DNA of 64,000 bases from a virus (Duplodnaviria > Caudoviricetes): IMG/VR virus record IMGVR_UViG_3300025383_000009. One strand, given 5' to 3'. Below are positions 1 to 53,703 of the stretch, piece by piece. Within the stretch, counting starts at the first letter, position 1. Every line of letters begins with the position of its first letter. Made by a program: the position numbers and the translations under genes. The notes beneath the pieces are model-generated. The model was not told the DNA's origin. It saw only the letters and a list, made by a program, of their open reading frames with translations, and searched no databases.

Positions 1-830
1 TTAATACCTAATGTATTAGTATTATAGCCCTTCCATGCTGCACCGCTGATGTTAGTCCATGTAGTACCACCATCAGTACTTTGTTGCCATTGGTATGTTA
101 AGCTATTATAAGCACCAGTTGCAGCAGAAGTTACTGTGAATAATGCATCAACTCCAGCATTTGCTGCAGCTGTAGCGTTAACCGGTTGTGCAGTAATGAT
201 TGTAGTAGCATCAAGTAATACTGAATCGTCAGCTGTACCTGTTGCACCAGAAGCACCTTTAGCTGGGTTAGCATCACCTGTTACTGATTGTGTTTGTGCT
301 GAGCCCATAGCTATTAAGATCTCTGATTTATGACGTACGTTACCGTTAGAGTCTGTATATGATACATACTCAACCCAACCTGGTGTCTTAAGACCACGAC
401 CACGGTTTTCAGCGTTTGAAGCTTCGTCTACGTCTTCGAAGTATAAACCTCTACCGTTGTAGTTATGGTCATTAACGTTAGCTTCACCAGTACGTTGTAG
501 TGTTTGAACGCCAACACCAGCACCTGTTAAGTTAACTTTACCTGTAGCACCACCCGCGATAGCATTAGCTTGTGTATCATAAAGACTGATAATACCTGAT
601 GTAGCTGTAAGACCTACATAGTAAGTTTTACCGTCTGTTAAGCCACCGATGACTGTACCACCATTGATTGAATATACAACACCGTCGCCCTTAGCGAAGT
701 CAGTGTTTGCACCCGTTAAATCTATTGTTTCTGCTGTAGTATTAACAGTCGTTGCACTGTTAAAGTACGCAATCCTTGCGACATACTTAGGCTTTGAAGC
801 CTGATTGTCGTGATTTCCCCATAAAGCCAT
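1..830 (-). CDS. Virion structural protein, partial (runs off left edge); C-terminal Ig-like segment
   Basis: Not in ORF track. Manual translation from ATG at 830 gives MALWGNHDNQASKPK...TAQPVNATAAA...LTYQWQQSTDGGTTWTNI, open to position 1. Late promoter at 856-863. Confidence 0.75.
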   Translation of the reverse strand, partial: MALWGNHDNQASKPKYVARIAYFNSATTVNTTAETIDLTGANTDFAKGDGVVYSINGGTVIGGLTDGKTYYVGLTATSGIISLYDTQANAIAGGATGKVNLTGAGVGVQTLQRTGEANVNDHNYNGRGLYFEDVDEASNAENRGRGLKTPGWVEYVSYTDSNGNVRHKSEILIAMGSAQTQSVTGDANPAKGASGATGTADDSVLLDATTIITAQPVNATAAANAGVDALFTVTSAATGAYNSLTYQWQQSTDGGTTWTNISGAAWKGYNTNTLGI

Positions 831-855: not shown

Positions 856-863
856 TATTTATA
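856..863 (-). promoter_or_regulatory. T4-type late promoter TATAAATA
   Basis: Exact TATAAATA on the minus strand upstream of the structural gene starting at 830. Confidence 0.75.
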
Positions 864-3441
864 CTCTAGCACCTGACTTAGATCCCGCTGGTCTGCCACG
901 TCCGCGTTTCTCTTTTGTTTCATCATCAGGTTTCTCATCAGTCTCATCATCTTTTTGATTAGCACCACCATACGCTGTACCTTTAACTAGATTGATATGC
1001 GGATGGCTTGTATCTGGTTTAAACTTAGGATCATACGCTGATTGACTAGCTTGTCTTAACTTCTGAGCGTCTCTTAAGTCATCGATCTTACCTTCATCCA
1101 TAACTGCTAAAGTACCTTTAACGTATGGAGACATTTCTTGTGAAACTTCTTCTTTAACACCAGAAGCTTTATGAATTTTCTCATGAGCTTTGCTTGATTG
1201 ACGTAATGCAGCATCATCAGATCGAGAAGCTTTTCCATCATCCATATTATCATAATGATATCTTTGTTTAAGATGATGAGCTACTGACTTTTCAACATCC
1301 TTACCAATGCCCTTATCACCTAGCTTTTTAGAAGCTCTTGCTAAACCTGTTAATCTATTTTGAAGTGGTTTATGACCATATTTTCCTTGATTATTTTTTC
1401 CACCTTGAATTTCAAGTTCATGTCTTGTAGGTGTTCCACTATCATATGCATCATGTGCTTTATCTTGAGCATCATCCGTAGCTTTATGAGCATATGAACC
1501 TAAAGTCTTTTTAGATAATTCATCAATCTGTGTTAACTTTTCTTCGATGCGTTCTACTTCTTCTTTAGATAATGATTGCATACCACGTTGAGCTAAAGCT
1601 TTAGCACGATCCATACCTTTACCAGGTTCTACTGGTTTCTTGAAGTGAGTATCTGCTTGTTGTGCAGTCTTATGACCGGCAACAATAGCAAGTTCTTTAC
1701 CTGAGATACCATGTTGTTTACCAACTGTCTCATAATCTGTAGGTGTAAACTGTTTATGACTTGAGTAACCCTTCTTGGTAGCATGATCCATCATGTCAGT
1801 ATAGATGTCTTTCATCTTGCCTTCATCGATCTTACCTTCATCCATAACTTGTAGTGTAGCTTTAAGGTATGGTGATATCTCTTGTGAAACTTCTTCTTTA
1901 ACAGGGTTACCAGTCTTAGGATCTAACTTAGTAACTTTACTAAAGTAATGTGAGTGTTGTTTCATTGCATCTGAAGATTTTACTGGTTTAGCCATTGAAT
2001 CATTTTTAGACCAACCGTCTTTAGGAAAACGCATTTCGTCCTCACACATTTCGCCTTCGTTAACACCAGCTGCTTTCATGAACTTAGCATGATCGAAGCG
2101 TGGGTTTTGTTTAGCGAAGATACCTGCATGATGTGTAGCAAGTTCTTTACGTTTCTCTGCAGATTCGTGACCTTTAATAAGATCAGCAACCATTTGGAAG
2201 TCTTTACGTGTAGTAGCTTCTTCTAATTCTACTTCTTCTTTAGCAATCTTCTTGCCAGCTCTTTCTAAACCTGACATCCTGTTAGAAGCACGACGACCAT
2301 GCTCTGATGCTTCTGGAGCATCATCATTTTCTTCTGCATCACGCTCATTATGGATAGACGATGCTAAATCTGATGAAGCTTTCTTAACGTAGTTACCTAA
2401 AGTCTTATTAGATAACTCATCGATCTGTGTTAACTTCTCTTCGATGCGTTCTACTTCTTCTTTGGATAATGATTGCATGCCGCGTTGAGCTAAAGCTTTA
2501 GCACGATCCATTTCATGGCCTTTTTCTACTGGCTTCTTGAAATTTGTAGGATCGTAATGATGTTTAGGATGACCATAGTGTTTATGGAACTCGTCATGAC
2601 CCATGTTTTGTAAGTCATAAGCAAGTTCTTTCATCTTACCTTCATCTAACTGAACGTCTTCTTTTAATTTGTCAACAGCTTTATCATGGCCTTTCTCACG
2701 CTTCCATGCTTGAGATTGGTATTTGCCAGCAAGACTATCCCATGTTTCTTTCTTTCTTGGGTTTCTTGCATGTGCAGCTTTACTCTTAAAGTCTGCAGCT
2801 ACATGTTGTTTGATACGTGCATCATGTGAAGCTTTCTTAGTATATGATGCTAATGTGTCTTTTGATAACTCATCGATCTGTTCTACTTCTTCTTTTTGTA
2901 CTTTAACAGGGTATGTTTTACCTTGGAACTCAAACTCTTTCTTACCCTCTTTATGAGCTGCATGAGCTGCCATACGGAGACCTGATTCGTCTACGTCTGC
3001 CTCTGACATCTTAGCTTTACCAGCTTGTGCAGACCAAGATTCTTTAACATGCTTTTTCTCTAATCTTTCAGCTTTTAATCTATGATACTCAGATGCTCTT
3101 TCATGACCAAAATATGAACCATGTTCTTCTTGATTAGCTGGACTTAAGTGATGTTCACCGGATTCTGATTCATGATGAAAAATTCGTGCTTCATCATGAT
3201 GAGTCTCCATGTGTTTATGATAAGCATGCATGTCACCTTTTTTCTTTGCAGCTTCAGCTTTTTCTTTATGCTTAGTGATCTCATGAGCCCATTTATTAAT
3301 GTCTTTAGCTTCACCATGTTCAGCACCGCTATCATAATCAGATCTCTTTGTAGATAAAGGTTCATGTTTCCAATGAGAATCTTTAATATTCTCCTCATTG
3401 AGCTGTACATTTTCCTTTAAAAAATCATTGAACTTTAACAT
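859..3441 (-). CDS. Large His/Lys-rich repetitive putative internal head (poly)protein
   Basis: N-terminus MLKFNDFLKE resembles the T4 capsid-targeting sequence; recurrent EEVE(Q/R)I(D/E)E linkers and ELSKxTLxxYxKKA modules. Confidence 0.6.
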   Translation of the reverse strand: MLKFNDFLKENVQLNEENIKDSHWKHEPLSTKRSDYDSGAEHGEAKDINKWAHEITKHKEKAEAAKKKGDMHAYHKHMETHHDEARIFHHESESGEHHLSPANQEEHGSYFGHERASEYHRLKAERLEKKHVKESWSAQAGKAKMSEADVDESGLRMAAHAAHKEGKKEFEFQGKTYPVKVQKEEVEQIDELSKDTLASYTKKASHDARIKQHVAADFKSKAAHARNPRKKETWDSLAGKYQSQAWKREKGHDKAVDKLKEDVQLDEGKMKELAYDLQNMGHDEFHKHYGHPKHHYDPTNFKKPVEKGHEMDRAKALAQRGMQSLSKEEVERIEEKLTQIDELSNKTLGNYVKKASSDLASSIHNERDAEENDDAPEASEHGRRASNRMSGLERAGKKIAKEEVELEEATTRKDFQMVADLIKGHESAEKRKELATHHAGIFAKQNPRFDHAKFMKAAGVNEGEMCEDEMRFPKDGWSKNDSMAKPVKSSDAMKQHSHYFSKVTKLDPKTGNPVKEEVSQEISPYLKATLQVMDEGKIDEGKMKDIYTDMMDHATKKGYSSHKQFTPTDYETVGKQHGISGKELAIVAGHKTAQQADTHFKKPVEPGKGMDRAKALAQRGMQSLSKEEVERIEEKLTQIDELSKKTLGSYAHKATDDAQDKAHDAYDSGTPTRHELEIQGGKNNQGKYGHKPLQNRLTGLARASKKLGDKGIGKDVEKSVAHHLKQRYHYDNMDDGKASRSDDAALRQSSKAHEKIHKASGVKEEVSQEMSPYVKGTLAVMDEGKIDDLRDAQKLRQASQSAYDPKFKPDTSHPHINLVKGTAYGGANQKDDETDEKPDDETKEKRGRGRPAGSKSGARV
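1530..2520 (-). repeat. Internal near-identical DNA duplication within the 860-aa gene (about 1530-1620 vs about 2410-2515)
   Basis: Both copies encode MDRAKALAQRGMQSLSKEEVERIEEKLTQIDELS. Confidence 0.85.
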
Positions 3442-3442
3442 A

Positions 3443-6166
3443 TTAATATCCCTCTCTTCTTAGTTTTTTAGCGGCATCAATGATGCGTTGGTTATGTTTT
3501 GAAATCTTGCCTTTAATGCCAGCTTTTTCTGCAGGATGTTCTGCTGCTGCATGTTGTTTATGAAGCTCATGAGCATGTGTCAATGACTTACCCATATAGT
3601 CTGTCCACTTTTCATCAGTAGGCATGTTTGCTTCTGCGACTCTTTCTATGTCTGCAGTCCTGATACCAAACATCTTACGATGTTGAGATTTATGTTTACC
3701 ATACTTCTTAAAGTATTTGAGGCTATCTAAGTTTTTCATATCGTCCTCAACGTTCTTTGTTAAGAAGCCTTCTTTCATACCCATCATCTTTTTCTTTTGT
3801 TCTGCATCCTTCTTAGGAGTCTCTATGCCTTTATCAGCAGGGTTGTTTTGACCTGTAAAAGCTCTCTGTGCAACTTCTCTATTCTTAAAAAAGTTAGCAA
3901 GTACTTTATGACCTCTTGACTCTTCAACTTCTTCCTTCTTCATGACTTTAGATTGTGTCTTAACTTGCATGGTTTTAGGTTTAACTTGTGATCCTGGAAT
4001 ACCATCATGATGATGGGCTTCTGTTAATGATTTATGCGGTACAGATGTCTTTTGTGTACCATATGAACCACCATGGAAGTGTACTGTATCATTGTCACGT
4101 GTAGCTTTCCATTTACGACCTGTCTCATCTTTAAATGAATGAGATTCACCATGTTTTAACTTAGCGATTGGCTCATGGTGTTCAGGATGTAGTGGGATCG
4201 AGAATGATTTACCGTGGTTAACAGTCTTCATTGTACCCCAATCATACTTACGTGATGACACTGTTGCTTCTTCGATATGTTCTACCTCTTCTTTTTGTGT
4301 GCCAAGCTTCTTAGTAGCACGGTCAATACCAGCGATACGTTTGTTTGCTTTCTTAAAGTCTGCATAAGACTTCTTAGAGTGTTTCTCTGCAGCTTCCCAG
4401 TCACCAGCTCTTGTATAGTGTGATGCCCATTCTCCAGCTTCTTTACCTGCATAAGTATGGGAACCAACATCTCTTGATGCTTTAGGAATGTATCTCATAA
4501 GTGTTGACTTAGATACTTCATCGATCTGTACTGATTCACCAATAGTATGAGCTAACTTATGTCTTTTAGCAAATTTTTGTGCTTGTTCAACATGATCTGC
4601 ATGTCCATGAAATTTACCTGATTTATCAATATTATTTTTAATATGATTTAAATCGCGTGACATCACTTTAACATTAAAATTAGATTTGTTATGATCCAAT
4701 TCTTTATCTACAGCATCATGAAATTTAGCAGGTTCATGAAATGTAATAGATTTTGCTTCATCGATCTGCTCTTCTTTAAGTGATCTCTCTGCACGCTCAT
4801 CACCTTTAACTCTATTTGATAGCTTACGCATATCATCTTTAGCAGTCTTCTTATAAGGGCTTTGATGGATAGCATAAGCACGATTCACGTCCTTAGCAGC
4901 TTTATCTCTGTAAGATTGGTATGTGCTCTTCTTTAACTCGTCAAGGTTAACTACTTCTTCTTTAGTTAATTTTTGTTTAGGTGTAACTGTTTGTCCTGCA
5001 GTTGCAGCATCATAAGCTTGACGTATAGTCTTATACTTAGATGGGCCACCTTCAACTGGAACTCCATTTCGTGTTGCACCACCACCTGCTTGTACTTTAA
5101 TTGGTTTAGTAGCGACCATCTTCTTAGTGATAGGATCGTATACTTTAGATTCGTCTAACTCTACGTCTTCTTTAGCGAGTTTTTGTTTTGCTTTATAAAC
5201 ACCATCTGCACGATTAAGATACTTCTTATCAAGATGTTTCATTTCAGGTGTATCATCAGAGAATTTACCATGTGTTTTGTCTCTAATATCTCTGAGTTTA
5301 GAATAGTTTTGTTGATACTTATCTTCTTCCTTCTCAGCTTTCTTAACATAAGAACCTAAAGTCTTCTTTGAGATCTCGTCGATTTGTTCAACTTCTTCTT
5401 TTAATTTAGCTACTCTATGTTTGTGCATCTTAACTATATCACCGCTAGCAGTTTTAATATGCCACATATCACCAGTACGTTCTTTTGATGAACCAACAAC
5501 TGTGCCGTGTTTACCAGAATCAAGACCAGAACCAGCTAATACAGCAGCTTTATGACCAACTGCTACTTTAGCATCACGATCGATAGGGCCATGTTCATAT
5601 CCTTCTTTAAAATCTTTAACTTCTTTTTTCTTTTGTGTTAAAGGGATAGGAGGATTTAAAACCTTTTTCTTGTCAACTACATCTGTACCGATACCTTTAT
5701 ACTCAATAGCTTCTGAAAGGTGTGCATCACATGATTTATGTGGACACTTATTAACATGATGCATGAAGTTTTGTGCATGTTCTTTTGATGGGAATTTAAA
5801 GAATACACCTTTATCAGATCCACCTGCATGTTCACCACCATGTTGTTTAACACCAGCCATGACATGCTCTACATCTTTTTCATGTGGTTGTTCATCGTAC
5901 TTAGAACCATCAGATACATGTACTAAATGCTCTTCTTTAGCTTCTCTCATGTCAACTTCTGCTGTAGAATTTTGTGATACTGCAGCTGACTCTTCTCTTT
6001 GTTTAGAATAGTATGCTGCGAGTGCCATTTGTTTACGCTTTGCAGCAGACTTACCTGCAAACTTAGGATTATCTGAGTGTACAAAGTCATCTATCCACTT
6101 ACCAGCTGGTGTGGACTTGGTTAAGATCTCATCTAGTCTTTGTGTTAGGTCTTTGTACGACTTCAT
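3443..6166 (-). CDS. Large His/Lys-rich repetitive putative internal head (poly)protein
   Basis: N-terminus MKSYKDLTQRLDE; repeats EEVEQIDEISKKTLGSYVKKA, NLDELKKSTYQSYRDKA, QIDEVSKSTLMRYIPKA. Confidence 0.6.
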   Translation of the reverse strand: MKSYKDLTQRLDEILTKSTPAGKWIDDFVHSDNPKFAGKSAAKRKQMALAAYYSKQREESAAVSQNSTAEVDMREAKEEHLVHVSDGSKYDEQPHEKDVEHVMAGVKQHGGEHAGGSDKGVFFKFPSKEHAQNFMHHVNKCPHKSCDAHLSEAIEYKGIGTDVVDKKKVLNPPIPLTQKKKEVKDFKEGYEHGPIDRDAKVAVGHKAAVLAGSGLDSGKHGTVVGSSKERTGDMWHIKTASGDIVKMHKHRVAKLKEEVEQIDEISKKTLGSYVKKAEKEEDKYQQNYSKLRDIRDKTHGKFSDDTPEMKHLDKKYLNRADGVYKAKQKLAKEDVELDESKVYDPITKKMVATKPIKVQAGGGATRNGVPVEGGPSKYKTIRQAYDAATAGQTVTPKQKLTKEEVVNLDELKKSTYQSYRDKAAKDVNRAYAIHQSPYKKTAKDDMRKLSNRVKGDERAERSLKEEQIDEAKSITFHEPAKFHDAVDKELDHNKSNFNVKVMSRDLNHIKNNIDKSGKFHGHADHVEQAQKFAKRHKLAHTIGESVQIDEVSKSTLMRYIPKASRDVGSHTYAGKEAGEWASHYTRAGDWEAAEKHSKKSYADFKKANKRIAGIDRATKKLGTQKEEVEHIEEATVSSRKYDWGTMKTVNHGKSFSIPLHPEHHEPIAKLKHGESHSFKDETGRKWKATRDNDTVHFHGGSYGTQKTSVPHKSLTEAHHHDGIPGSQVKPKTMQVKTQSKVMKKEEVEESRGHKVLANFFKNREVAQRAFTGQNNPADKGIETPKKDAEQKKKMMGMKEGFLTKNVEDDMKNLDSLKYFKKYGKHKSQHRKMFGIRTADIERVAEANMPTDEKWTDYMGKSLTHAHELHKQHAAAEHPAEKAGIKGKISKHNQRIIDAAKKLRREGY

Positions 6167-6168
6167 TC

Positions 6169-6627
6169 TTATTCTCCGGGTTTCTTAATTTGTTTTAATG
6201 ATGCGAGGATTTGCCATTCCCACATCTTATGTTTATCCATACGGTCTGCTACAAAGTTAGCAAGGCCTTGTTGTTTTTCTCTTGTAGCATCATCAAATAG
6301 CTCTGTCAATACGTGTAGTATCTCTGTGTTTGCATGTAGTAAGTTAACTAACATCTCACTGATGTTTTCAGGCTTAACTTTATCTTCCTCTATAGTCTTA
6401 TAGCTATGGATCTCTTCAAGGCTGATAGGTGCATACACATCAAGCTTACGCAAGTTCTCTGCAAATGGGTCTACAGCTCCATAGGTGTCTTCATAGATCT
6501 TTTGGAAGAACTTATGGTACTGACTAAAGAACATCCCTTCCACGTTCCAATGGTATGAATGACTCTTGAAGTACATACAAAACGTATTACCCAATGCAAC
6601 CTTCAACGTAGCGATTAGCTTTTCCAT
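6169..6627 (-). CDS. dps: Dps/ferritin-like DNA-binding protein
   Basis: HSYHWNVEG, YHKFF and AVDPFAENL ferroxidase-type residues; start moved to MEKLIATLK at 6627 to avoid overlap. Confidence 0.9.
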   Translation of the reverse strand: MEKLIATLKVALGNTFCMYFKSHSYHWNVEGMFFSQYHKFFQKIYEDTYGAVDPFAENLRKLDVYAPISLEEIHSYKTIEEDKVKPENISEMLVNLLHANTEILHVLTELFDDATREKQQGLANFVADRMDKHKMWEWQILASLKQIKKPGE

Positions 6628-6629
6628 AT

Positions 6630-8402
6630 TTATTTTCTCTCGGTTTGCTGTCTCATCCATGAATCATAATCTAGGAGAGTATTAAGGTTTTCTTTTTTAA
6701 TCTTCTTTTCAAAGAAAGCACTAAAGCCTTTGCCTTTTTGTTTATTTGGTTCATCATCTGCTGGTGGTGCCATATTAGCTGGTAGTGGTACAACCTTAGT
6801 AACCTTTTGGCCTTCTACTTCACCGTCTGCCGACTCCTGTGTATACTCGCCGTCTTTTGTGATGTAGCATTCTTTACCGTACTTCTTACCAGCTGCTCCA
6901 GCTTCTCCTCTTGATTTATGAGGGCCAGATAAGATATCGTTTGACGCTGTACATCTTACGTAGTAACCAGCTTCGTGTTCAGGTTTGATCTGTACACCTG
7001 CTGTCTCGTTCTTTGTCATCACAGACTCAGTAGCATACATGACTTTACGTCTACGTAGGTGACGATCTGTCTCTAGTGTATGACCAACTTCGGTATGTTT
7101 ATGGAACGGGTACTTTTGTAAATCATCGATCTGCTGTGAGATGTTAGGGTCTAAGACTTGCTTGATCTCTTTGTCATCAGGTATGATGCCTTGGTTCATC
7201 TTATGTAGTTTCATGAAGTCAGAGTATCTTAATACGTCTTGAGCTATGTTATAGGTGTTAGATACGCCTTCCTTGATAGTCATCTTATCAAGCTCGGCTT
7301 TATGTTTTTCCCAATGTTCTTTGTGAGAATCAAAGCATCCTAGTTTCTCTAGTGATTCTCTTGACTTCTTATGAGCTTCTTGAGCATCCTTAACATGTTT
7401 AAAGCCATATAGTTCTGGCTTGGACGGGTCGAAGTCATAGATCTTAAGGTATGCATCAGTTGTCTTGATAGCATTTAACATAGCAACTGGATCTGTAGCT
7501 TTGTCCATAGTTAGTTTAAAGGCTTTTGAGCCTTGTGGACAATGATGCATATTAGTTGTCGTGTAGCCTTTGTAGGAGATCTCATGACCTTCGTTGACCT
7601 CTACTTGCTCAGGCACACAGTTAGGGACTGTCTTACCATTTTTCTTTTTAAGGCCGATAGCCTTGTAGCCTTTCCAACATGCTTTAGATAGGGACTTAGC
7701 TTCTACTAATGACACATCCTTCACCCATTTCCTATGTAAGGTGCCAGTGTTATCAACTACGACTAGGTAGTTTGATCCACGGTCCATGATCTCGTACTGA
7801 TGACCAGCAGACTCAACGATGTCACCCACATGGTAGATCTCACCTTTAAAGTACTTCTCTCTAAGTATGTCTACTGAGAACTTGATATCTTCTTTGATTA
7901 GTTCAAGACCTTGGACTTGTCTCATCTCGTTCATGATCCTACGAGCGTCAAGTTCACGTACCATTGATGGCAGTTGTTTCTTAAACGATGTAAAGTCACC
8001 CTTGGTGACCATTGATTTGATCTTTGAGAAGTCAACGTCATTGCCTGTGGTGACAACGTTCATTGACTCGTATAGCTTGGCTTTATCTTCTGAAGCAACT
8101 ACGATGACATCCTTGTACCTCTTCTTAAGAGCTGTTAGTTCAGAAGCAAAGTTTGACTCGTTCAATGCCTTAAAGTTCATTGAACCAAACATCATCTCAA
8201 GGAAGTGTAGCTTACGATCTACTGGTAGGCTATCCTTGTCTTCTGTAACATAGATTATGTGGTCGGCAGAGTTTGACTCAACTAGCTTATGGACTAGCTT
8301 AAGAGTCATCTCAGTGACCGAGGTAGGCGGGTTAAAGCTTCCGACTGTCATGATGACGGTCTTAGAAGGCAATTCCCGTATGAGTTGTCTATAGTTCTTC
8401 AT
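6630..8402 (-). CDS. Cytidylyltransferase-like (HIGH-family) protein with degenerate HxGH motif and appended modules
   Basis: VGSFNPPTSVTE where the paralog has GRMNPPTTGH; later LREKYFKGEIYHVGD and CWKGY...VPNCVP modules; N-terminus MKNYRQLIRE. Confidence 0.7.
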   Translation of the reverse strand: MKNYRQLIRELPSKTVIMTVGSFNPPTSVTEMTLKLVHKLVESNSADHIIYVTEDKDSLPVDRKLHFLEMMFGSMNFKALNESNFASELTALKKRYKDVIVVASEDKAKLYESMNVVTTGNDVDFSKIKSMVTKGDFTSFKKQLPSMVRELDARRIMNEMRQVQGLELIKEDIKFSVDILREKYFKGEIYHVGDIVESAGHQYEIMDRGSNYLVVVDNTGTLHRKWVKDVSLVEAKSLSKACWKGYKAIGLKKKNGKTVPNCVPEQVEVNEGHEISYKGYTTTNMHHCPQGSKAFKLTMDKATDPVAMLNAIKTTDAYLKIYDFDPSKPELYGFKHVKDAQEAHKKSRESLEKLGCFDSHKEHWEKHKAELDKMTIKEGVSNTYNIAQDVLRYSDFMKLHKMNQGIIPDDKEIKQVLDPNISQQIDDLQKYPFHKHTEVGHTLETDRHLRRRKVMYATESVMTKNETAGVQIKPEHEAGYYVRCTASNDILSGPHKSRGEAGAAGKKYGKECYITKDGEYTQESADGEVEGQKVTKVVPLPANMAPPADDEPNKQKGKGFSAFFEKKIKKENLNTLLDYDSWMRQQTERK

Positions 8403-8988
8403 TTTTTGTCGCCAGTTTTTTGCTTAATATTGTTGCTGCTATTTTAGCTTTAGTTTCTTCAGACCTTGGCACTCCTTTAAATGCTGCAGATATTTTAGCT
8501 TTAGTTTCTGCGGAACGTGGAGATCCTTTTACCCAAGGGCATGATTTACCTCTTTTAGCTTCTGACATTTTCTGTTTTGTTTGTTCAGCAATAATTTTGC
8601 CTTTAGCTGAATTAGACATATTTGTTCTTTGTTTTTCAGTATAAATTTTACCTAATTTAGCTTTAGATTGTTTTTCTCTTGTTAACTTAGTAACTATTAT
8701 ACCGCTAGTACCTTCTCCACCATCTGTCATATTATATAATAACCCGGTTCCAAGATCTTTACGACCCCACCAACGGATCATACGACGTTCAAGAGCTAAA
8801 GCTCCAATCTCAGTAAGATTAGTTTCTAGTAGTATTATTTTATTCTTGTCTTTAGGCACTTTAATTCGGCCGTGTGTTTCATACGCACGATCGTTTTTAC
8901 CCTTACCAATATAGTAAGGAATGCCTTTTTTACTTAGATAGGCATATATGTAATATATAGTGCCTAATGGGCTGGGTTTATTCTTCAT
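8389..8988 (-). mobile_element. Free-standing GIY-YIG homing endonuclease with NUMOD3-like repeats
   Basis: YYIYAY...YYIGKG, conserved R and E, YNMTDGGEG, C-terminal RSxETKAKI repeats. Confidence 0.9.
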
Positions 8989-9017: not shown

Positions 9018-9025
9018 TATTTATA
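9018..9025 (-). promoter_or_regulatory. Late promoter TATAAATA
   Basis: Exact motif upstream of the GIY-YIG gene. Confidence 0.7.
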
Positions 9026-9272
9026 CTACAGAAAGTATCGTTTTTGTAATATTCACGACCCATCTTGCAGTTACCTCATCTTGTGCAAGCTCTGCGTTAG
9101 CTTGGACGTTACCAATCTCGGTAACTAGATCCTTATACTCTACGTCTGTAAGTATGCCATCATTGTATTGCTCTGTGATGTCATGTAACTGTTGAGCTAA
9201 TGCGCCTTTGATTCCCGGCTCTGCCATGGCAGATCTTAATTCGGTTAAAACACTCATGATCTTCCTTTCCAT
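9021..9272 (-). CDS. Hypothetical protein
   Basis: Fits operon packing; no motif recognised. Confidence 0.65.
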   Translation of the reverse strand: MERKIMSVLTELRSAMAEPGIKGALAQQLHDITEQYNDGILTDVEYKDLVTEIGNVQANAELAQDEVTARWVVNITKTILSVV

Positions 9273-9610
9273 GCTGACTCAATCACTTGAAGACGAGTCC
9301 TATTAAGTTTAATGGTGGCTTCACAGTATGCTGGGCTTCCGTCTCTAGCTTTTTGTGCTGCGATGTAGAACTCAGTTACTGCCTTCTGTTGAGGGTCATC
9401 CCTCCATGCTGTATATACATCCAACCAACGGGCATCCTCAATAAGCTTTGCCCAGTCAACTTCTTTCTTATCATTGCAAGATACCTTCTCAATATCTACT
9501 TTAAGGTCTGTAAGCTTGGCTGCTTCTGCAGTATCATGATGCTTGGGTAGTAGGTTAGTTATAGCACACCCATTCAATAGTAGTACACTTACTAATAGTA
9601 GTCTCTTCAT
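9254..9610 (-). CDS. Putative lipoprotein
   Basis: MKRLLLVSVLLLNGC signal peptide with lipobox-like LNGC. Confidence 0.65.
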   Translation of the reverse strand: MKRLLLVSVLLLNGCAITNLLPKHHDTAEAAKLTDLKVDIEKVSCNDKKEVDWAKLIEDARWLDVYTAWRDDPQQKAVTEFYIAAQKARDGSPAYCEATIKLNRTRLQVIESAWKGRS

Positions 9611-10221
9611 TACTTGCTCCCTTGTTGTACGTCATGCATTAGTTCTTTTGCATGTTTATCTGATACATGCTCTGGTACACCCTTACGAAACTCATGGAAG
9701 TTACCTGATTTTGCATGCTCTCTTTGTTTAGTGCCTGATACGCCTGATGTACCCTCAGAATCTGGATCTCTATGACCAGCAGAGTGTACTGTTATCTTCT
9801 TAAAGTTATAATGCCCGTGTCCGGCTTTCTTGTTATTATACCTATTTAACAGCGTCGTCATCTCCTTCTTACGATCTGATCCTACCACAACATGTAGGTG
9901 AGTTACACCTTTCTTATGTAGATCAGCTGCATGGTGTAATATGGTTGGATGCTCGGCAGATGATGCCTTAATGTTTGTCTTAGGTGAGAAGCGTTTAAGG
10001 TGTTTAAGCTTTTGCTCTGGTGATAGTGGGTTCTTTTTCTTATCATGGCTATGTGATGTCACCACTGTATGACCAGCTTCATGTTTATCAGCCACGTCAT
10101 GGACCTTCTTGATAAGTGAAAGATGACCAGTCGTAGGAGGGTTCATACGACCATAAGTCAATACATGATGCTTAGCACCAGTATCCTCTGTGATAAAATC
10201 TTTTAGACTTAGCAATTCCAT
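9610..10221 (-). CDS. Cytidylyltransferase-like (HIGH-family) nucleotidyltransferase
   Basis: TYGRMNPPTTGH, HSHDKKKNPL, VVGSDR and SGTKQR (KMSKS-like) motifs. Confidence 0.85.
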   Translation of the reverse strand: MELLSLKDFITEDTGAKHHVLTYGRMNPPTTGHLSLIKKVHDVADKHEAGHTVVTSHSHDKKKNPLSPEQKLKHLKRFSPKTNIKASSAEHPTILHHAADLHKKGVTHLHVVVGSDRKKEMTTLLNRYNNKKAGHGHYNFKKITVHSAGHRDPDSEGTSGVSGTKQREHAKSGNFHEFRKGVPEHVSDKHAKELMHDVQQGSK

Positions 10222-10484
10222 TTTCTTAAAGCTAATGCCTTCCTTGTTGGTTTGCCATGTTCATCCTTCATAGGACCTTTAACTCCACCCATACGAGCGC
10301 AGAAAGACTTACGTCGTCCTGCAGCCTTACCACCTTTTTTAAGTTTGGATGGTGGTGTTGTTACAGCCATTTTTAAATGATGACCAGGATTCTCTCTGTT
10401 ATACTTATCTACACCAGCACGGGTTAAACCACCGGTCTCTGACTTGTACTTGTCTTCTTTAAGGTACTCTTTAAACGTTAGCAT
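10209..10484 (-). CDS. Conserved basic T4-like phage protein (DUF6321-like)
   Basis: GGLTRAG...RRKSFCARMGG...ALRKWNC; N-terminus MLTFKEYLKE. Confidence 0.7.
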   Translation of the reverse strand: MLTFKEYLKEDKYKSETGGLTRAGVDKYNRENPGHHLKMAVTTPPSKLKKGGKAAGRRKSFCARMGGVKGPMKDEHGKPTRKALALRKWNC

Positions 10485-11661
10485 TTGGTTTACGGTTCCT
10501 CATTAAGTTTGCACGACTAAACTCAGCTCTATCTACAAGCTTTGTTGGTTCGTTCTTATGGTTAACTACATAGCCTTCTGGATGTGTCTCCTTACCTTCA
10601 ATGTGATGGCTTAGAGTTCCAGGATGTTGGTTCAATGTCTTTACCAATACGTTCTTTGCTTTTTGGATATGCTGATGCATCTTCAATAAGTTCTCGTATG
10701 AGCTTGCATGCTTATTGATATGGTTAATTTCTTGCTGTGCACCGCGTTGCTTCTCTTCTGCAGCCTTTGTAGTCTTAAGCCTTGATTGGACGATCTGTGA
10801 TTTGTCCATGACATGTTGCTGTAAGCCTCTTACTGTTGGCTTTGCGTTGTTTCGTACTGTTTGGTTGATGTATGTAGCTAGATGACCAGATGCACCTTGA
10901 TGTGGCTCAGTAGCAGCATACATAGTCTTCTTATGTTCGTCATGGATCTTTTGTGCAGCATCCATATGTTTATGAAACTCTTGTTGAGCTTTGTCTCCAT
11001 AGTTTATGATACGTGTATCATGCTCAGCAGTCTTATGCCATACATCTGGATGCTGTCTGAACTTATGCTCGATCTCAGGGCTTGCCTTCATATCACCTAT
11101 ATCTCGACCATGATACTGCTGATGGACGACTACGCCAACCTTTGCTTTCTTAACTTTATTAGCTTCTTGTCCATGAGCTGAGTAGGTAATGGTATTTGGA
11201 GTAAACGAAGTTGATCCGTTTGGATTATGAACCACATCATGATGACTAAACATCATGTCGCCTTGATAGACACCTTTCTTAGGAGTTACCTTTGGTAGAT
11301 GTGTTAATGCATCTTTAAGTTTTTGCACAAGACCTGGAGCATGACCATGATTTCTTTCAATGTCTTCAGGCGTATGGTTAATCTTAGGGTTCTTATTGAA
11401 TGCAGACTTGGTAGCTACAAAGAACTTACCCGTCTTTGGATGATGACCGAATACGATCGCTGGTGAGCCATCATACTTCATCGTTAGGCTTTTATCCTTC
11501 TTACCAGACTTGATATGCTCAGACGCTTGGTTCAATGCACCCTTTGCATGCTCAAAACCTTTGGCTCCATTGATAAGAGGTCTATCCTCAGGATGGGCTA
11601 TATGTGATACTTTGCCCTCTGTAGATATAGCTTCTGTTAAGTATTGTGAAAATGATATCAT
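10471..11661 (-). CDS. DUF6267-like protein with ATP-dependent ligase-type motifs
   Basis: KYDG (motif I), YQGDMMF (III-like), EGYVV (IV), TKLVD (V); N-terminus MISFSQYLTE. Confidence 0.7.
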   Translation of the reverse strand: MISFSQYLTEAISTEGKVSHIAHPEDRPLINGAKGFEHAKGALNQASEHIKSGKKDKSLTMKYDGSPAIVFGHHPKTGKFFVATKSAFNKNPKINHTPEDIERNHGHAPGLVQKLKDALTHLPKVTPKKGVYQGDMMFSHHDVVHNPNGSTSFTPNTITYSAHGQEANKVKKAKVGVVVHQQYHGRDIGDMKASPEIEHKFRQHPDVWHKTAEHDTRIINYGDKAQQEFHKHMDAAQKIHDEHKKTMYAATEPHQGASGHLATYINQTVRNNAKPTVRGLQQHVMDKSQIVQSRLKTTKAAEEKQRGAQQEINHINKHASSYENLLKMHQHIQKAKNVLVKTLNQHPGTLSHHIEGKETHPEGYVVNHKNEPTKLVDRAEFSRANLMRNRKPNANV

Positions 11662-11662
11662 A

Positions 11663-12754
11663 TTATCTTAATGTAAATGTTCCTGCAGTACCTTTATGCG
11701 GACCTGATGTTGATTTAAAAGTCTGTGTAGCTACAGCTTTAACTTTACCATGATCTTTATGACCAGGATTATGGTATGTACCATGGATCGTAGCGCTGAT
11801 GCCACCATGTTTAACATGTAAGTTCTTAAAGTGTTTAAGGTGTTCGTCAGCTATGTGCTCTGAATCATGGACATGTGATGTAGCGGATCCATCATCATGT
11901 ACATGGCTATGAGCTACAAGGTGCTTGAACTTAGTTGGAGGGGATACTTGATCTCTAATATGCTTCCTAAGTTCTGAATCAGACTTCTTAGATAATCCTT
12001 TTGCGTGCTCCTTAGCCATAGCCGTTCTTACAGCAATAGATGATTGTTCAGCTTCATGGGCGCGCTTAGCATCTTTAGACTTTGGTTTAAATTCACCCGT
12101 ACCTTTATGTGCTTTCTTTTCTGCTTCTAACTTAGCTTTATCCATCTTATAGTGTTCGTGTCTTTGCTGTGTAGTACCGTGATAGCCAATAATTTGCATA
12201 TTGTTTTCATGGGCTTTTTGGAGTTTAGTATAGATCCCATGTTTACCTGAATGCTTTTCAAGTGATGCTAGTCCAGCATTCTTAAAATTAGGTTGAGCGT
12301 TTGAACCATACTTTGCTGATATCGGATGGAAATGTTTCTTACCTTTCTTATCATGAGAAGTTACTATCACGTCTGCGTTTGAGTTAACATCCTTATGACC
12401 TGTGGTCTTTTCATGATCTCCAGCTTTTTTCTCTGTGTCTCTGTTGGAAGTCCAATGAACTGCATGGATAGTATGACCTTTTGGGATATGTTTCTTTATC
12501 TCACCTGCAGTTTGCTTAGCATGTTTGTCTATCTCTTTGTATGCTGCATCACCAATCTTTTTCTTTAGTTTAGTGTGTACTTGTTCAGGTGTTCCAGAGT
12601 GTTCAGGGTTATCTGACACAGCTCTATGGTGTTCAGGGAGTTTACCTTTTGGATGGAGATGCTTAGCTAATAATAATTCATGCATCTTACCTTTATCATC
12701 AGCGGCCACTGAAGAGGTTGCAGATTCTACTAAAAAGTCATTAAAGCTTAACAT
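11663..12754 (-). CDS. Putative PD-(D/E)XK restriction-like nuclease
   Basis: GKMHELL helix, NADVIV...ISAK; N-terminus MLSFNDFLVE. Confidence 0.5.
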   Translation of the reverse strand: MLSFNDFLVESATSSVAADDKGKMHELLLAKHLHPKGKLPEHHRAVSDNPEHSGTPEQVHTKLKKKIGDAAYKEIDKHAKQTAGEIKKHIPKGHTIHAVHWTSNRDTEKKAGDHEKTTGHKDVNSNADVIVTSHDKKGKKHFHPISAKYGSNAQPNFKNAGLASLEKHSGKHGIYTKLQKAHENNMQIIGYHGTTQQRHEHYKMDKAKLEAEKKAHKGTGEFKPKSKDAKRAHEAEQSSIAVRTAMAKEHAKGLSKKSDSELRKHIRDQVSPPTKFKHLVAHSHVHDDGSATSHVHDSEHIADEHLKHFKNLHVKHGGISATIHGTYHNPGHKDHGKVKAVATQTFKSTSGPHKGTAGTFTLR

Positions 12755-12763
12755 ACATCTTCC

Positions 12764-13363
12764 TTATTTTATCGTGGTAACAGAGCCATCTTCCTTGGCC
12801 ATGTATGCCTCAAAAGTTATAGATGGGAACTCTTTCTTTAGTTTTAAAAATTCTTTTAGGTTACTCATACTGTCATCAAATAGTCTTACCCTTGAGAACT
12901 GTCTTGTCTTAAGGTAGTTCCTAATGATAATAGCTTTCTTAAAAGCTGGGATCATTTGCCCTTCGATCCTACCGGCTCTCTCGATCCTAACCTTATTTAT
13001 TGGAAACCCATACTTACTAAAAGTAGCAAGTACTTTGTTCTTATCATCAAAGTTATTCCTAGCTGTGATGATGACTACTTTACTATTAGGTGTATTAGCT
13101 GCGTTCTTAGCGATGGCTCTAGCTTTGTTAAACATCTTAGAGATCGGTGTAGACTCTTTAAGAAACTTCTCGGAGCTAGCAAATTGGGTGAAGTCAAACT
13201 TCTCCCCTGGCTTCAACTTATAATCGTTGAACTGTTGGTTGGTGAGTGTCTTTACTACCTGCCCATTCTTGACCACTCCTACTTGTGCCGTAGTCTTGAA
13301 TAAGGTATCATCTATATCAAATATAGTAAGACCACCATTTAGGTTTTGTAATTCTTCAGCCAT
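12764..13363 (-). CDS. HAD-superfamily phosphatase
   Basis: IFDIDDTL (motif I), IITAR (II), LFDDSMSNL (IV). Confidence 0.85.
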   Translation of the reverse strand: MAEELQNLNGGLTIFDIDDTLFKTTAQVGVVKNGQVVKTLTNQQFNDYKLKPGEKFDFTQFASSEKFLKESTPISKMFNKARAIAKNAANTPNSKVVIITARNNFDDKNKVLATFSKYGFPINKVRIERAGRIEGQMIPAFKKAIIIRNYLKTRQFSRVRLFDDSMSNLKEFLKLKKEFPSITFEAYMAKEDGSVTTIK

Positions 13364-13391: not shown

Positions 13392-13399
13392 TATTTATA
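13392..13399 (-). promoter_or_regulatory. Late promoter TATAAATA heading the cargo operon
   Basis: Exact motif just downstream of the gp41 terminator. Confidence 0.75.
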
Positions 13400-41162: not shown

Positions 41163-43274
41163 TTATGCCACCAGCCCTATAAACTGATTAAGCAATATGC
41201 GACTGGTCTTCTTATTTGAGAGCATCTTGGTGAGCTCCCGGGCGATCCTGGATGCGCTTTCCTTTTTACCTATAGAAAGCTCTTTGTCATCCTCAATCTT
41301 AGCTCTGGATTCAGCCACTATGAAGAGCTCGTCCCGACCTGTATCCTTCATTGATGCAAAGCCATTCTTACGAAGATCTCTCTTCATGTCTTCGATACCC
41401 ATAGCTGAGATGTGTGAGCCATGACCATAATGAGCTACGAATGCATTGTGTAGATATCTGAACGTTGGTCGTGTGATGTAAAATCCTACAGTAGTGATAG
41501 CATGTCTATCCTTAATCATCTGTAAGAGTGACTTAGTTTGCTCTGCGTTCTCTGACATTGGATAGTTCTTACGAGTTACTGTATCAGATAAGAACGGCTT
41601 GACAGTAACATAGTCTTTGCCATTATAGTTTCGTTTCATCCTGATCTGATCAAATCCAGTTCTTAAGTACTCGCCTTCACCGTCAGTCAATGTGATGAGC
41701 GTCATCTTTTCTGTACCGTTCTTACTCTTAAATTCTGGGATGTAGTTGTATAACCATGCTAACGCAGAATTCAATGGAGTACCAGATGTTTTAAAGTTGT
41801 GAAGGTTATAGAATAACCTTGATAAAGTGATGGTGATCATCTTATTAAATTCTGATTGAGTCATCTTAGATGAGAATAACTCCATCATAGTAAGACCAAA
41901 CGTGTCAACTTCAGATTCACCTGCTGTCATCATACGGGTACCATCAGCGTTTCTGTACTTAGTATCAGACCAACCGTTTGTGAATGCAAATACTTGGAAT
42001 GGGATCTGAGCACCTCTACAAAACATTGCTAATGATACGACTTGCTCGATCGTTGGTCTTAACACATGATCCATTGAAGCTGACCAATCCAATAAGAATA
42101 TCATACCATGACTTTTACCGTTAGGGATAGACATCACTTGTTTGAATATGTCATCGTTTAGTTTATAAGCATAAAGCTTTTTACCATCCAATGAACCAGT
42201 CTTTGCGACCTTAGCACGTTTATAGTTTTGTGCTGACTTACGCATCTCGAATTCTTTTACTAAGTAGCTAACTACGTTCTTAGATGATGCTTTAAACTTC
42301 TCAGCGCGTTCTACGTCATCATCATTAATTACTGAAGCACCGCTAGCATTCCATTCTGCTTCATATTCTGCATGCTCTGCAAATACTTCTTTATAGGTAA
42401 CCATTGGATTGACCTTAAATTGTTTAGGGATAGTGATGTACTTGTATTCGATTGAAGTATCAGCTAATTCTTGAAGCTTCTTATCTAAGTTCTTTTCAGT
42501 TTGTGACTCTAACTGATCTTCGAGTGAGTCTTCAAGGTCTTGAAGCGGATCCGTTTTGGTTGATGGTGATGATTGCTCGTCTTCGATCTGATCAGTCTCT
42601 TCCTCATCTGCATCAAAGTCTTGCATCTGTGAATTACCTTGCTCTTCAGACTCTTCTTCTTCAAATTCTTCGTGATCGTCTGACAATGCTTTCATCTGTT
42701 CGATCTTGTCTTCCATAGCTTTCTTAGAATAGTCATAGATCTCTTTAGCTAACGCGATCACATCTTTACATGTCTCAGTCTCTTCAGCACGTCTTACGAA
42801 TGCTTTCTCTTCAGCATTAAAAGTAACACCGCATGAATAACCAGCTTTGAAATATAGGTTGATCTTATCGATGAGTAACATATCTTTGAAACCGTTAGCT
42901 ACACCAAAGAAGTCTCGATTATTAAGTTCTTTATAACCTAAGTTGAATGACTTACGAAGACCAGGATATCTGCGCTTCATAAGCTTCTCGATACGTACAT
43001 CCTCAAGCACGTTCATATAGCCTGAGAAGTGAGGGGTATCTTTATAAGGGTTTTTAGTTGAATACTCTTCAAGAGTAGTGTAAAGCGCGTGACCTACTTC
43101 ATGACCAACTAACATATCAATAAGATCGTTAGTCATGTCCTTCCATTGTGGAAGTCTTAGGACACGATTTTTGATGTCAAACGATGCTGTAGATACAGGT
43201 GCCTGTATAACAGTAAGGTTTTCGTTTGCTAATAATTTTGCTACTAAGTCAGTTTTTGTCATCAATCTCTCCAA
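41163..43274 (-). CDS. CobT-like protein: HExxH peptidase-like N-terminus and VWA domain
   Basis: HEVGH, NVLEDVRIE, LDWSASM MIDAS motif, GTPL, LTDGE. Confidence 0.85.
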   Translation of the reverse strand: MERLMTKTDLVAKLLANENLTVIQAPVSTASFDIKNRVLRLPQWKDMTNDLIDMLVGHEVGHALYTTLEEYSTKNPYKDTPHFSGYMNVLEDVRIEKLMKRRYPGLRKSFNLGYKELNNRDFFGVANGFKDMLLIDKINLYFKAGYSCGVTFNAEEKAFVRRAEETETCKDVIALAKEIYDYSKKAMEDKIEQMKALSDDHEEFEEEESEEQGNSQMQDFDADEEETDQIEDEQSSPSTKTDPLQDLEDSLEDQLESQTEKNLDKKLQELADTSIEYKYITIPKQFKVNPMVTYKEVFAEHAEYEAEWNASGASVINDDDVERAEKFKASSKNVVSYLVKEFEMRKSAQNYKRAKVAKTGSLDGKKLYAYKLNDDIFKQVMSIPNGKSHGMIFLLDWSASMDHVLRPTIEQVVSLAMFCRGAQIPFQVFAFTNGWSDTKYRNADGTRMMTAGESEVDTFGLTMMELFSSKMTQSEFNKMITITLSRLFYNLHNFKTSGTPLNSALAWLYNYIPEFKSKNGTEKMTLITLTDGEGEYLRTGFDQIRMKRNYNGKDYVTVKPFLSDTVTRKNYPMSENAEQTKSLLQMIKDRHAITTVGFYITRPTFRYLHNAFVAHYGHGSHISAMGIEDMKRDLRKNGFASMKDTGRDELFIVAESRAKIEDDKELSIGKKESASRIARELTKMLSNKKTSRILLNQFIGLVA

Positions 43275-53052: not shown

Positions 53053-53703
53053 TTATTTAATTTTCGCAAGGAATGATTGGAATGCTCTAATCTTTGCCTC
53101 TTGTAAATTTTTGCTTGAAGCTTTTCTAATAAATGCTTGTGCTTCTCGCAAGTCTTTCTCCACAAATTTTCCATCGACCATAACCCATTCTTTAGACTCC
53201 ATGACACCCTCTACGAAAGCATTAGGGGCGGACGGGTCAGCAACTATATCAGCTGCTGTCGCTAAAGTAAAATCTTTACCTACATAAGAAACATCACCTT
53301 TACGATCTAGTGATCCCATACCTCTGGAACTAACGCCAAGTCTAGCTCCTTCATCGATAAGTGACTTCACTATCTTACCATATGGTGTATCCATGATCTT
53401 AGCTTTACCAATGAAGTTATCACCTTCTCGATGAAGCTTTTTAATCATATGAGACACCCTGTCAAGGTTGATCGTAGGGGAATCAGGATGACCTAACTCA
53501 CCAAAGGCACGATTCTTATTGACATACTCATCGTTATATCGTTTTACCTCACCATCAAGTATCTCTACTGGATAGATACGGCCGTTACGATTCTTTAAGT
53601 TCGATTGAAGGAATACACCTTCAATGAAGTATTCTTTACCTTTACCTAGTTTCTCTTCAACTAAGTACTTAACCTCTTCGGTATGTTCTTTAATTAGCTT
53701 AAT
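53053..53703 (-). CDS. gp21: Prohead core protease, apparent ATT start
   Basis: Frame extends past the track's start through (M)KLIKE...IEGVFLQ...NRNGRIYP...GELGHP; later GVSSRGMG, DIVADPSAP. Confidence 0.95.
   Translation of the reverse strand: MKLIKEHTEEVKYLVEEKLGKGKEYFIEGVFLQSNLKNRNGRIYPVEILDGEVKRYNDEYVNKNRAFGELGHPDSPTINLDRVSHMIKKLHREGDNFIGKAKIMDTPYGKIVKSLIDEGARLGVSSRGMGSLDRKGDVSYVGKDFTLATAADIVADPSAPNAFVEGVMESKEWVMVDGKFVEKDLREAQAFIRKASSKNLQEAKIRAFQSFLAKIK

Follow-up and report, generated by a model that had tools for sequence, protein, structure and literature searches.

What are two adjacent genes for proteins of roughly 100 kDa doing in the genome of an uncultured T4-like myophage? The genes, open reading frames (ORFs) A and B, lie head to tail with a gap of 1 nt in the 64,000-nucleotide stretch of IMG/VR record IMGVR_UViG_3300025383_000009 that was analyzed (the window; it covers bases 48262-112261 of a virus contig that is 160,126 bp long and rated 99% complete). 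An earlier note on this DNA had described both as strings of short modules joined by linkers of the kind cut by a prohead protease. On balance, ORFs A and B appear to encode head-packaged cargo polyproteins that the prohead protease would cut into separate pieces, which would make them T4 internal proteins in polyprotein form. By this analogy one gene probably delivers many small head-packed proteins.

Nearly all window genes lie on the minus strand. They encode gp23, gp22, a gp21-type protease, the gp20 portal, gp18, gp19 and gp17 together with UvsX, UvsW, a gp41-like helicase, gp43 and gp46/47. Methylophilales phage Melnitz, several cyanophages and Pelagibacter phage Mosig have major capsid proteins with 60-63% identity to the one encoded here, which places the phage in the aquatic branch of the T4 superfamily. 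Similarity searches gave little on the two ORFs. Megablast and tblastn of the region and of ORF B against 50,697 phage records returned no match, and tblastn of ORF A against these records found only cyanophage P-TIM68 and one single-cell marine virus fragment. Pfam reported nothing above its cut-off for either ORF, and PHROGs reported only two families, both of unknown function. Composition is distinctive. Lys makes up 13.6% of ORF A and 15.1% of ORF B, Glu and Asp together 18% and 15%, and His 6.4% and 6.1% compared to 0.5-2.6% in the replication and structural proteins of the same phage.

The linkers follow the rule of a prohead protease

A linker with the consensus K-E-E-V-E-x-(I/L)-(D/E)-E occurs at eight positions in ORF A and seven in ORF B (Table 1). 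Two of the ORF A linkers are double sites (RIEE plus QIDE) and one ends in Asp. The four linkers quoted in the earlier note are all present: KEEVEQIDE (A183-191, B256-264), KEDVQLDE (A260-267), KEEVELEE (A401-408) and LKEEQIDE (B463-470). The strict motif [KEQ][ED][EDQ][VI]xx[IL][DE]E matches ORFs A and B and no others among the 548 ORFs of the 160-kb genome. A position weight matrix of fixed length missed the 7- and 8-residue variants. The T4 prohead protease gp21 cleaves after Glu in L/I-X-E (PMC9026906), and the linkers end in this rule. Asp at P1 blocks processing of T4 IPIII (PMC9026906), so linker 7 of ORF A is probably left uncut.

Homologues were used to measure how constant the linker is. 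A word-indexed search with ORF B recovered 1,082 proteins from a set of 5.8 billion, and an exhaustive HMMER search with ORF A recovered 1,419 cluster representatives (50% identity, E <= 0.001) of 77 to about 1,400 aa. Motif statistics were drawn from 250 fetched homologues, in which a linker regular expression has 447 matches compared to 9.2 in shuffled sequences. The commonest 5-mers, counted blind, are KEEVE, EQIDE, DELSK and TLGSY; with KEEVE and EQIDE among them, no element recurs more often in the family than the linker. When module starts are anchored solely on SK.TL..Y (n = 345), the sequence upstream has Glu at P1 in 100%, Ile, Leu, Val or Met at P3 in 100% and Asp at P2 in 90%. Anchoring instead on KE[ED][VAT] (n = 778) finds [LIVM]-x-E within six residues in 605 cases and [LIVM]-x-D alone in 4. 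The P1 and P3 residues named by the rule are thus invariant, and with a gp21 homologue in the window (see below) the earlier note's prohead-protease assignment of the linkers is supported.

ORFs A and B were also cut at the linkers and the modules searched singly, so that the linker was absent from the query. [LIVM]-x-E lies no more than 2 residues upstream in 915 of the 1,001 module occurrences (91%), compared to 9% at random positions. In other proteins the modules of A and B turn up anywhere between relative positions 0 and 0.9, and each common module has 39-68 distinct neighbors upstream and downstream. Two modules keep their place: B1 is always first, directly after the leader, and A8 (84 matches) lies mostly near the C-terminal end (relative start 0.6-0.95, one outlier at 0.05). 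Module A8 ends in KRGRGRPAGSKSGARV, whose RGRP core resembles an AT-hook by eye, and GRGRP is found in 90 of the 250 homologues. The module shuffling that had been proposed is borne out by this reordering, with the linker as the boundary. The motif (L/I/V)SKxTLxxYxKKA, earlier ascribed to many module starts, is real and narrower in scope, opening 6 of about 16 modules (A192, A343, A642, B265, a degenerate B411 and B551). The reading of A and B as modular polyproteins that carry prohead-protease-type linkers and evolve by shuffling is well supported by these sequence comparisons.

Two further comparisons concern how modules are deployed. The stand-alone DUF6321 protein o91 begins with the leader MLTFKEYLKE↓DKYKSE (arrows mark predicted cuts), and a homologous polyprotein (P0092) carries DUF6321 as its last module after EEVQLDE↓TWSDSKYK (E = 1.4e-20 versus o91). 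On this comparison leader and linker are interchangeable ahead of the DUF6321 domain. Two related complete-size contigs, L005 and L006, have the same locus between genes for a ferritin-like protein and a head protein beginning MALWG. The locus holds one 1106-aa ORF in L005 and ORFs of 996 and 405 aa in L006, the extra one starting MLKFNDYLKE; the division of the module string into ORFs therefore varies, as would be expected if the string is cut up anyway. Pfam content of the homologues is limited to DUF5824, DUF7443, DUF6321 and weak EF-hand matches. Single-linkage clustering of inter-linker segments was dropped in favor of the per-module neighbor counts because shared linker and LSK ends merged the segments into one giant family. 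BLAST alignment end-points fall near linkers, blurred by long low-complexity extensions, and were not used as main evidence.

The joint is also standardized in the DNA. The duplication described earlier (about 1530-1620 versus 2410-2515) is larger than claimed, spanning 172 nt at 85% identity (1480-1651 versus 2377-2548), and a second pair of 81 nt is 89% identical (1079-1159 versus 1823-1903). Direct repeats of 29-67 nt with 61-90% identity are centred on linkers. Gln is encoded by CAG in 7 of 8 linker cases (15 linkers), compared to 14% CAG across both ORFs, and the linker Ile codon is nearly always ATC, which gives a DNA core of CAGATCGATGA. This core (for example at 2869-2895, 5375-5401 and 4757-4777) includes GATC and the palindrome ATCGAT, which may bear on methylation or recombination. 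The codon bias and linker-centred repeats fit shuffling by recombination at the joint without proving it.

Leaders resembling the T4 capsid-targeting sequence and a gp21-type protease

The T4 internal proteins IPI, IPII, IPIII and Alt carry a capsid-targeting sequence (CTS) and are processed by gp21 (reviewed in PMC9026906 and PMC3012670). The T4 CTS is MKTYQEFIAE (PMC8442874), in which targeting depends on residues 4 and 7 and processing on residues 8 and 10 (PMC9026906). The N terminus of ORF A has the same spacing: position 4 is aromatic, and positions 7, 8 and 10 are Phe, Leu and Glu. The 13-residue leader of ORF B is conserved in homologues as MKS[YFL]K[DE]..(Q)[IL][ND]E↓VL(T/K). A strict leader pattern, M-x-x-aromatic-x-x-hydrophobic-[LI]-x-E, matches 5 of the 548 genome ORFs, all between window positions 859 and 12754, where 0.2 would be expected by chance. 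Leaders are found on A, B and five neighboring genes (Table 1), and across hundreds of homologues the leader is conserved ahead of differing first modules. In Prochlorococcus phage P-TIM68 the cytidylyltransferase (AIR93495) begins MKSFTSFFTE, and the gene after it encodes a protein of 1006 aa (AIR93496) with two linkers, KKEEVEKIDE↓VSKGTLGNY and KEETNLDE↓KCWPGY. This block of leader-tagged, presumably late genes looks like a head-cargo operon. The leaders, the gp21-type protease in the window, the reordered modules and the stand-alone module gene are all additions to the earlier note, and the leaders make the cargo reading stronger than it was there.

The presumed cutting enzyme is the ORF at 53053-53703. 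It matches the phrog_207 head-maturation protease family (E = 1e-41) and the T4 gp21 structure 5JBL (E = 1e-19), with the catalytic His and Ser in place. The gp23 of this phage has a gp21-rule site, ALFE↓AAPS, at the expected place. No ATG, GTG or TTG lies upstream of the catalytic His of the protease ORF, and the first canonical start would remove that His. The start codon is likely ATT at 53701-53703, 7 nt after AAGGAG, giving MKLIKE↓HTEE. This N terminus carries an I-x-E site that compares with LIE-9 of T4 gp21. A co-fold of the gp21 homologue with B240-290 scored 0.00 and gives no evidence either way.

Table 1. Positions of the ORFs, leaders, linkers and neighboring genes in the window. 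Arrows mark predicted cuts; A and B residue numbers refer to the two proteins.
Feature	Position	Strand	Description
ORF A	859-3441	-	860 aa, 97 kDa; leader plus about 8 modules; AT-hook-like tail on last module
ORF B	3443-6166	-	907 aa, 102.5 kDa, pI 9.4; leader plus 8 modules
Leader of A	3394-3441	-	MLKFNDFLKE↓NVQLNE↓; T4-CTS-like decapeptide, then second L-x-E
A linker 1	2869-2895	-	KEEVEQIDE↓, A183-191
A linker 2	2641-2667	-	LKEDVQLDE↓, A259-267
A linker 3	2416-2463	-	double site KEEVERIEE↓KLTQIDE↓, A327-342; inside 172-nt repeat copy 2377-2548
A linker 4	2218-2244	-	AKEEVELEE↓, A400-408
A linker 5, long	1822-1902	-	VKEEVSQEISPYLKATLQVMDEGKIDE↓, A514-540; one copy of 81-nt repeat
A linker 6	1519-1566	-	double site KEEVERIEE↓KLTQIDE↓, A626-641; inside 172-nt repeat copy 1480-1651
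A linker 7, long	1078-1158	-	ends ...MDEGKIDD, A762-788; P1 = Asp
C-terminal tail of A	862-912	-	EKRGRGRPAGSKSGARV; AT-hook-like RGRP core, judged by eye
Leader of B	6128-6166	-	MKSYKDLTQRLDE↓; 13-residue form of T4-CTS-like leader
B linker 1	5375-5401	-	KEEVEQIDE↓, B256-264
B linker 2	5150-5176	-	AKEDVELDE↓, B331-339
B linker 3	4937-4963	-	KEEVVNLDE↓, B402-410
B linker 4	4757-4777	-	KEEQIDE↓, B464-470
B linker 5	4517-4537	-	ESVQIDE↓, B544-550
B linker 6	4268-4294	-	KEEVEHIEE↓, B625-633
B linker 7	3920-3940	-	KKEEVEE↓, B743-749; P3 = Val
Prohead protease	53053-53703	-	gp21 homologue, presumed cutting enzyme; GELGHP and GVSSRG motifs
Ferritin/Dps-like gene	6169-6660	-	no leader; between o590 and ORF B
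o590	6630-8402	-	leader MKNYRQLIRE; cytidyltransferase-like N terminus plus CWxGY...PNCV module
Homing-endonuclease-like gene	8389-8988	-	phrog_314/15526; no leader; own late box TATAAATA at 9018-9025
Lipoprotein-like gene	9254-9610	-	no leader; 118-aa ORF starting MKRLLLVSVLLLNGC, lipoprotein-type signal and lipobox
o203	9610-10221	-	NMNAT/cytidyltransferase-like; leader MELLSLKDFITE
o91	10209-10484	-	DUF6321, 91 aa; leader MLTFKEYLKE
o396	10471-11661	-	DUF6267; leader MISFSQYLTE
o363	11663-12754	-	His-rich, 363 aa; leader MLSFNDFLVE
Late promoter box	13392-13399	-	T4-type, TATAAATA; heads co-oriented cluster

Structure models and predicted products

Structures of both ORFs were predicted by AlphaFold2 with fragment alignments (ORF A, mean pLDDT 69.8 and pTM 0.34; ORF B, mean pLDDT 61 and pTM 0.33). 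The models consist of confident small domains separated by low-confidence stretches. No fold spans the whole protein, and a single folded domain across the linkers, which the earlier note had named as an outcome that would count against it, is not seen. LSK-type modules are modelled as helical hairpins (B411-470, B551-633 and A192-264), B80-151 as a beta-alpha-beta-beta-alpha-beta domain, B670-700 as a small beta domain and A43-93, A410-460 and A540-590 as small helical bundles. Helices break exactly at five junctions: B264/265, B339/340, B550/551, B749/750 and A267/268.

Foldseek of the B model against the PDB returned nothing beyond weak generic ferredoxin-like, ACT, PII and NikR-C matches, all to B80-151 and none better than E = 0.07. 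For the A model, Foldseek against AFDB clusters produced long-helix noise (TM about 0.1) and one exception, a 56-aa stand-alone look-alike of A413-461. An ESM Atlas look-up of module B551-633 was uninformative (score < 0.8). The predicted module products are 7-28 kDa with a pI of 5.2-9.9; modules A1, A3 and A4 are acidic (pI 5.2-6.4) and ORF B modules are mostly basic (pI 8-10). Their earlier description as small basic peptides was overstated, as these are predicted folded modules and several are acidic.

Discussion

The proposed mechanism borrows each step from T4. ORFs A and B would be expressed late, and the T4-CTS-like N-terminal leader would carry the proteins into the scaffolding core of the prohead. 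The activated gp21-type protease would then remove the leader and also cleave after the Glu of each (I/L/V)-x-E that ends a K-E-E-V-E-x-I-D-E linker, releasing about eight Lys/His-rich modules per protein. These would be mostly two-helix hairpins with a few small alpha/beta or beta domains. They would remain with the packed DNA as internal proteins, and some would probably be ejected with it. Because the joint is standard at both the protein and the DNA level, modules could be swapped, duplicated and deleted at the linkers.

Mullaney and Black reportedly described the T4 internal proteins' capsid-targeting sequence and its gp21 processing in 1996. ORFs A and B share with these proteins a leader of roughly 10 residues in which position 4 is aromatic, position 7 hydrophobic, position 8 Ile or Leu and position 10 Glu. 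As in T4, the genome encodes a gp21-type protease, and the cargo is basic, fast-evolving and non-conserved, with a leader fused to mature parts that are unrelated; A and B are presumably late genes as well. Each T4 internal protein is single, small and cut once, whereas A and B have about eight modules per ORF of about 100 kDa, an internal 9-residue linker that repeats the cut rule and His-rich modules. Their mature parts have no sequence similarity to T4 internal proteins.

Other systems share parts of this design. The inner-body and ejection proteins of the giant phages phiKZ, 201phi2-1 and SPN3US are processed by gp175/gp245 at S/A/G-X-E (PMC5694885, PMC10052503, PMC9026906). As in the present proposal, a gp21-related protease cleaves many proteins inside the head after Glu, some of them at several sites, and the host receives the ejected cargo. 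The differences are that those cuts mainly remove propeptides at redundant sites, that no standard repeated linker or free cassette shuffling has been reported and that P3 prefers small residues rather than the Ile/Leu of A and B. The polyvalent proteins of phages and conjugative elements (Iyer, Burroughs, Anand, de Souza and Aravind 2017; PMC5512222) are, like A and B, very large mosaics; they combine 2-15 unrelated domains, are predicted to be capsid-packed and delivered with DNA, and their rapid domain shuffling is read as a sign of host conflict. Unlike A and B, they have recognizable enzymatic and LPD domains, often with their own zincin peptidase for self-processing, and are without a CTS-like leader or repeated prohead-protease linker. 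None of their signature domains (LPD, MuF, zincin MPTase, ART) was found in A or B by Pfam above its cut-off. In the library of papers that was searched, none was found to describe CTS-bearing polyproteins in T4-like phages.

Several observations weigh against cargo polyproteins cut at every linker. Cleavage and packaging are argued from T4 by sequence analogy. Conservation of the linker extends over 9 residues, far beyond the 3-residue rule of gp21, and therefore helix formation, recombination or another protease may select it. T4 internal proteins are cut only once (PMC8442874), and multiple cuts are typical of expelled scaffold proteins (PMC9026906). Modelled helices are continuous through A191/192, A335-342, A408/409, B410/411, B470/471 and B633/634, so the linker is not just a floppy spacer, and a picture of flexible acidic linkers holds only in part. 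Low pLDDT at the linkers is not significant by a rough estimate, as 40% of B lies below pLDDT 50. Neither Pfam (nothing above cut-off) nor the fold searches named a function for any module.

An unlikely alternative is that the proteins are packaged and not diced. The leader alone would be removed, leaving flexible multidomain internal proteins of about 100 kDa in which KEEVEQIDE-LSKKTLGSY, rather than a cut site, would be a recombination joint and at the same time the conserved helix that opens a repeated hairpin domain. The helices that cross several linkers, a motif much longer than gp21 requires and the single cut of T4 internal proteins (PMC8442874) agree with this view, as does linker DNA conserved beyond codon usage (the CAG excess and the CAGATCGATGA core), which fits selection for recombination. 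However, the same linker precedes the unrelated non-helical modules B340, B634, B750, A268 and A409, so it is not part of one domain family. Invariant Glu at P1 and Ile/Leu at P3, with Asp at P1 in 4 of 778 cases, are predictions of a protease rule and not of a helix, and leader and linker substitute for each other ahead of the DUF6321 domain.

It is quite unlikely that A and B serve as sacrificial proteins of the core or scaffold type that, in the manner of T4 gp22, gp67 and gp68, are cut at every linker into pieces that leave before DNA packaging. They would then help to build or fill the prohead core and deliver nothing to the host. Multiple L/I-x-E cuts are the hallmark of degraded and expelled T4 core proteins (PMC9026906), and A and B are, like these, helical with acidic stretches and many L/I-x-E sites (cut by gp21 in T4); several ORF A modules are acidic as well. 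The T4 proteins are conserved, have a single function in assembly and yield fragments of which most leave the head, whereas A and B are mosaic, largely basic and composed of folded modules. The phage also encodes its own gp22 and gp67/68-like proteins. Confident folded domains that are mostly basic in B, and one AT-hook-like tail, fit retention with DNA, and extreme mosaicism with variable copy number would be unusual for an assembly scaffold.

It is very improbable that A and B are no capsid cargo at all but late cytoplasmic or secreted multidomain proteins whose CTS likeness is coincidental and whose acidic repeats are spacers or sites of a different protease. Such a protease could come from the host or be the 703-aa peptidase that the phage encodes in the window at 41163-43274, and the T4 CTS has been tested in T4 alone. 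Against this reading, all five strict CTS-like N termini lie in one putatively late operon of 12 kb, the leader is kept over hundreds of homologues before different first modules, and a homologue of the neighboring cytidylyltransferase (T4-GC190) was detected in virions of cyanophage S-SM1 (Sullivan et al. 2010; PMC3037559). That detection is the only experimental hint of head cargo from this locus.

If A and B are cargo polyproteins and the cuts are real, double-stranded DNA phages load their capsids with true polyproteins. To our knowledge, the polyprotein strategy is known from RNA viruses and is undescribed for tailed-phage cargo. The family is very large, with the 1,419 clusters and more than 1,000 matches noted above, and it is carried by abundant T4-like phages of aquatic habitats that are related to cyanophages and to pelagiphage and Methylophilales myophages. 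The proposal would explain a large block of hypothetical late genes, provide a catalog of candidate injected proteins to screen against defense systems and offer a portable linker of natural origin with which several foreign proteins could be loaded into T4-type heads. A broader scenario is possible but doubtful: that the T4 internal-protein system has become a cassette library in aquatic T4-like phages, where a standard joint with the CAGATCGATGA core is both protease cut site and recombination site, hundreds of small His/Lys-rich modules are exchanged between phages and each virion injects a phage-specific cocktail of at least a dozen small proteins that act before phage gene expression. Roles for such a cocktail, for example in anti-restriction or anti-defense, as DNA counter-ions or as metal carriers, are speculative, and so are the DNA-coating and anti-defense roles suggested earlier for the products.

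Neighboring genes

The leader-tagged genes share their cluster with others. His content is 6-12% in ORFs A and B, o203, o396 and o363 and 3.3-3.6% in o91 and o590; the enrichment might reflect metal binding or pH-dependent binding of DNA. The CWxGY...PNCV module of o590 is also found within polyproteins. Late boxes number 13 in the window compared to 6.6 expected, all of them on the gene strand. Besides the copy that heads the cluster, one at 856-863 overlaps the ORF A stop.

The homing-endonuclease-like gene is missing at this place in L006, and L005 has a NUMOD3 ORF elsewhere, which marks it as a mobile insertion. The lipoprotein-like ORF in the middle of the cluster is conserved in L005 and L006. 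The ferritin/Dps-like gene ends 2 nt from the start of ORF B, an arrangement also kept in both contigs. A HAD-like protein at the head of the cluster (12764-13363 in the window, 4791-5402 in L006) has the CTS-like leader MLKFKEYITE↓QKEGYLSIFDIDD in L006 and no such leader here or in L005 (MAEELQ...LTIFDIDD). By this comparison the address tag is gained or lost between orthologues.

The gene downstream of ORF A (3-830, minus strand) starts MALWGNHDNQ and matches head or virion structural protein PHROGs. Its counterpart (compare L004, 5475-6017) follows the giant protein in P-TIM68, L005 and L006, and the order of the locus is therefore conserved across distant aquatic T4-like phages.

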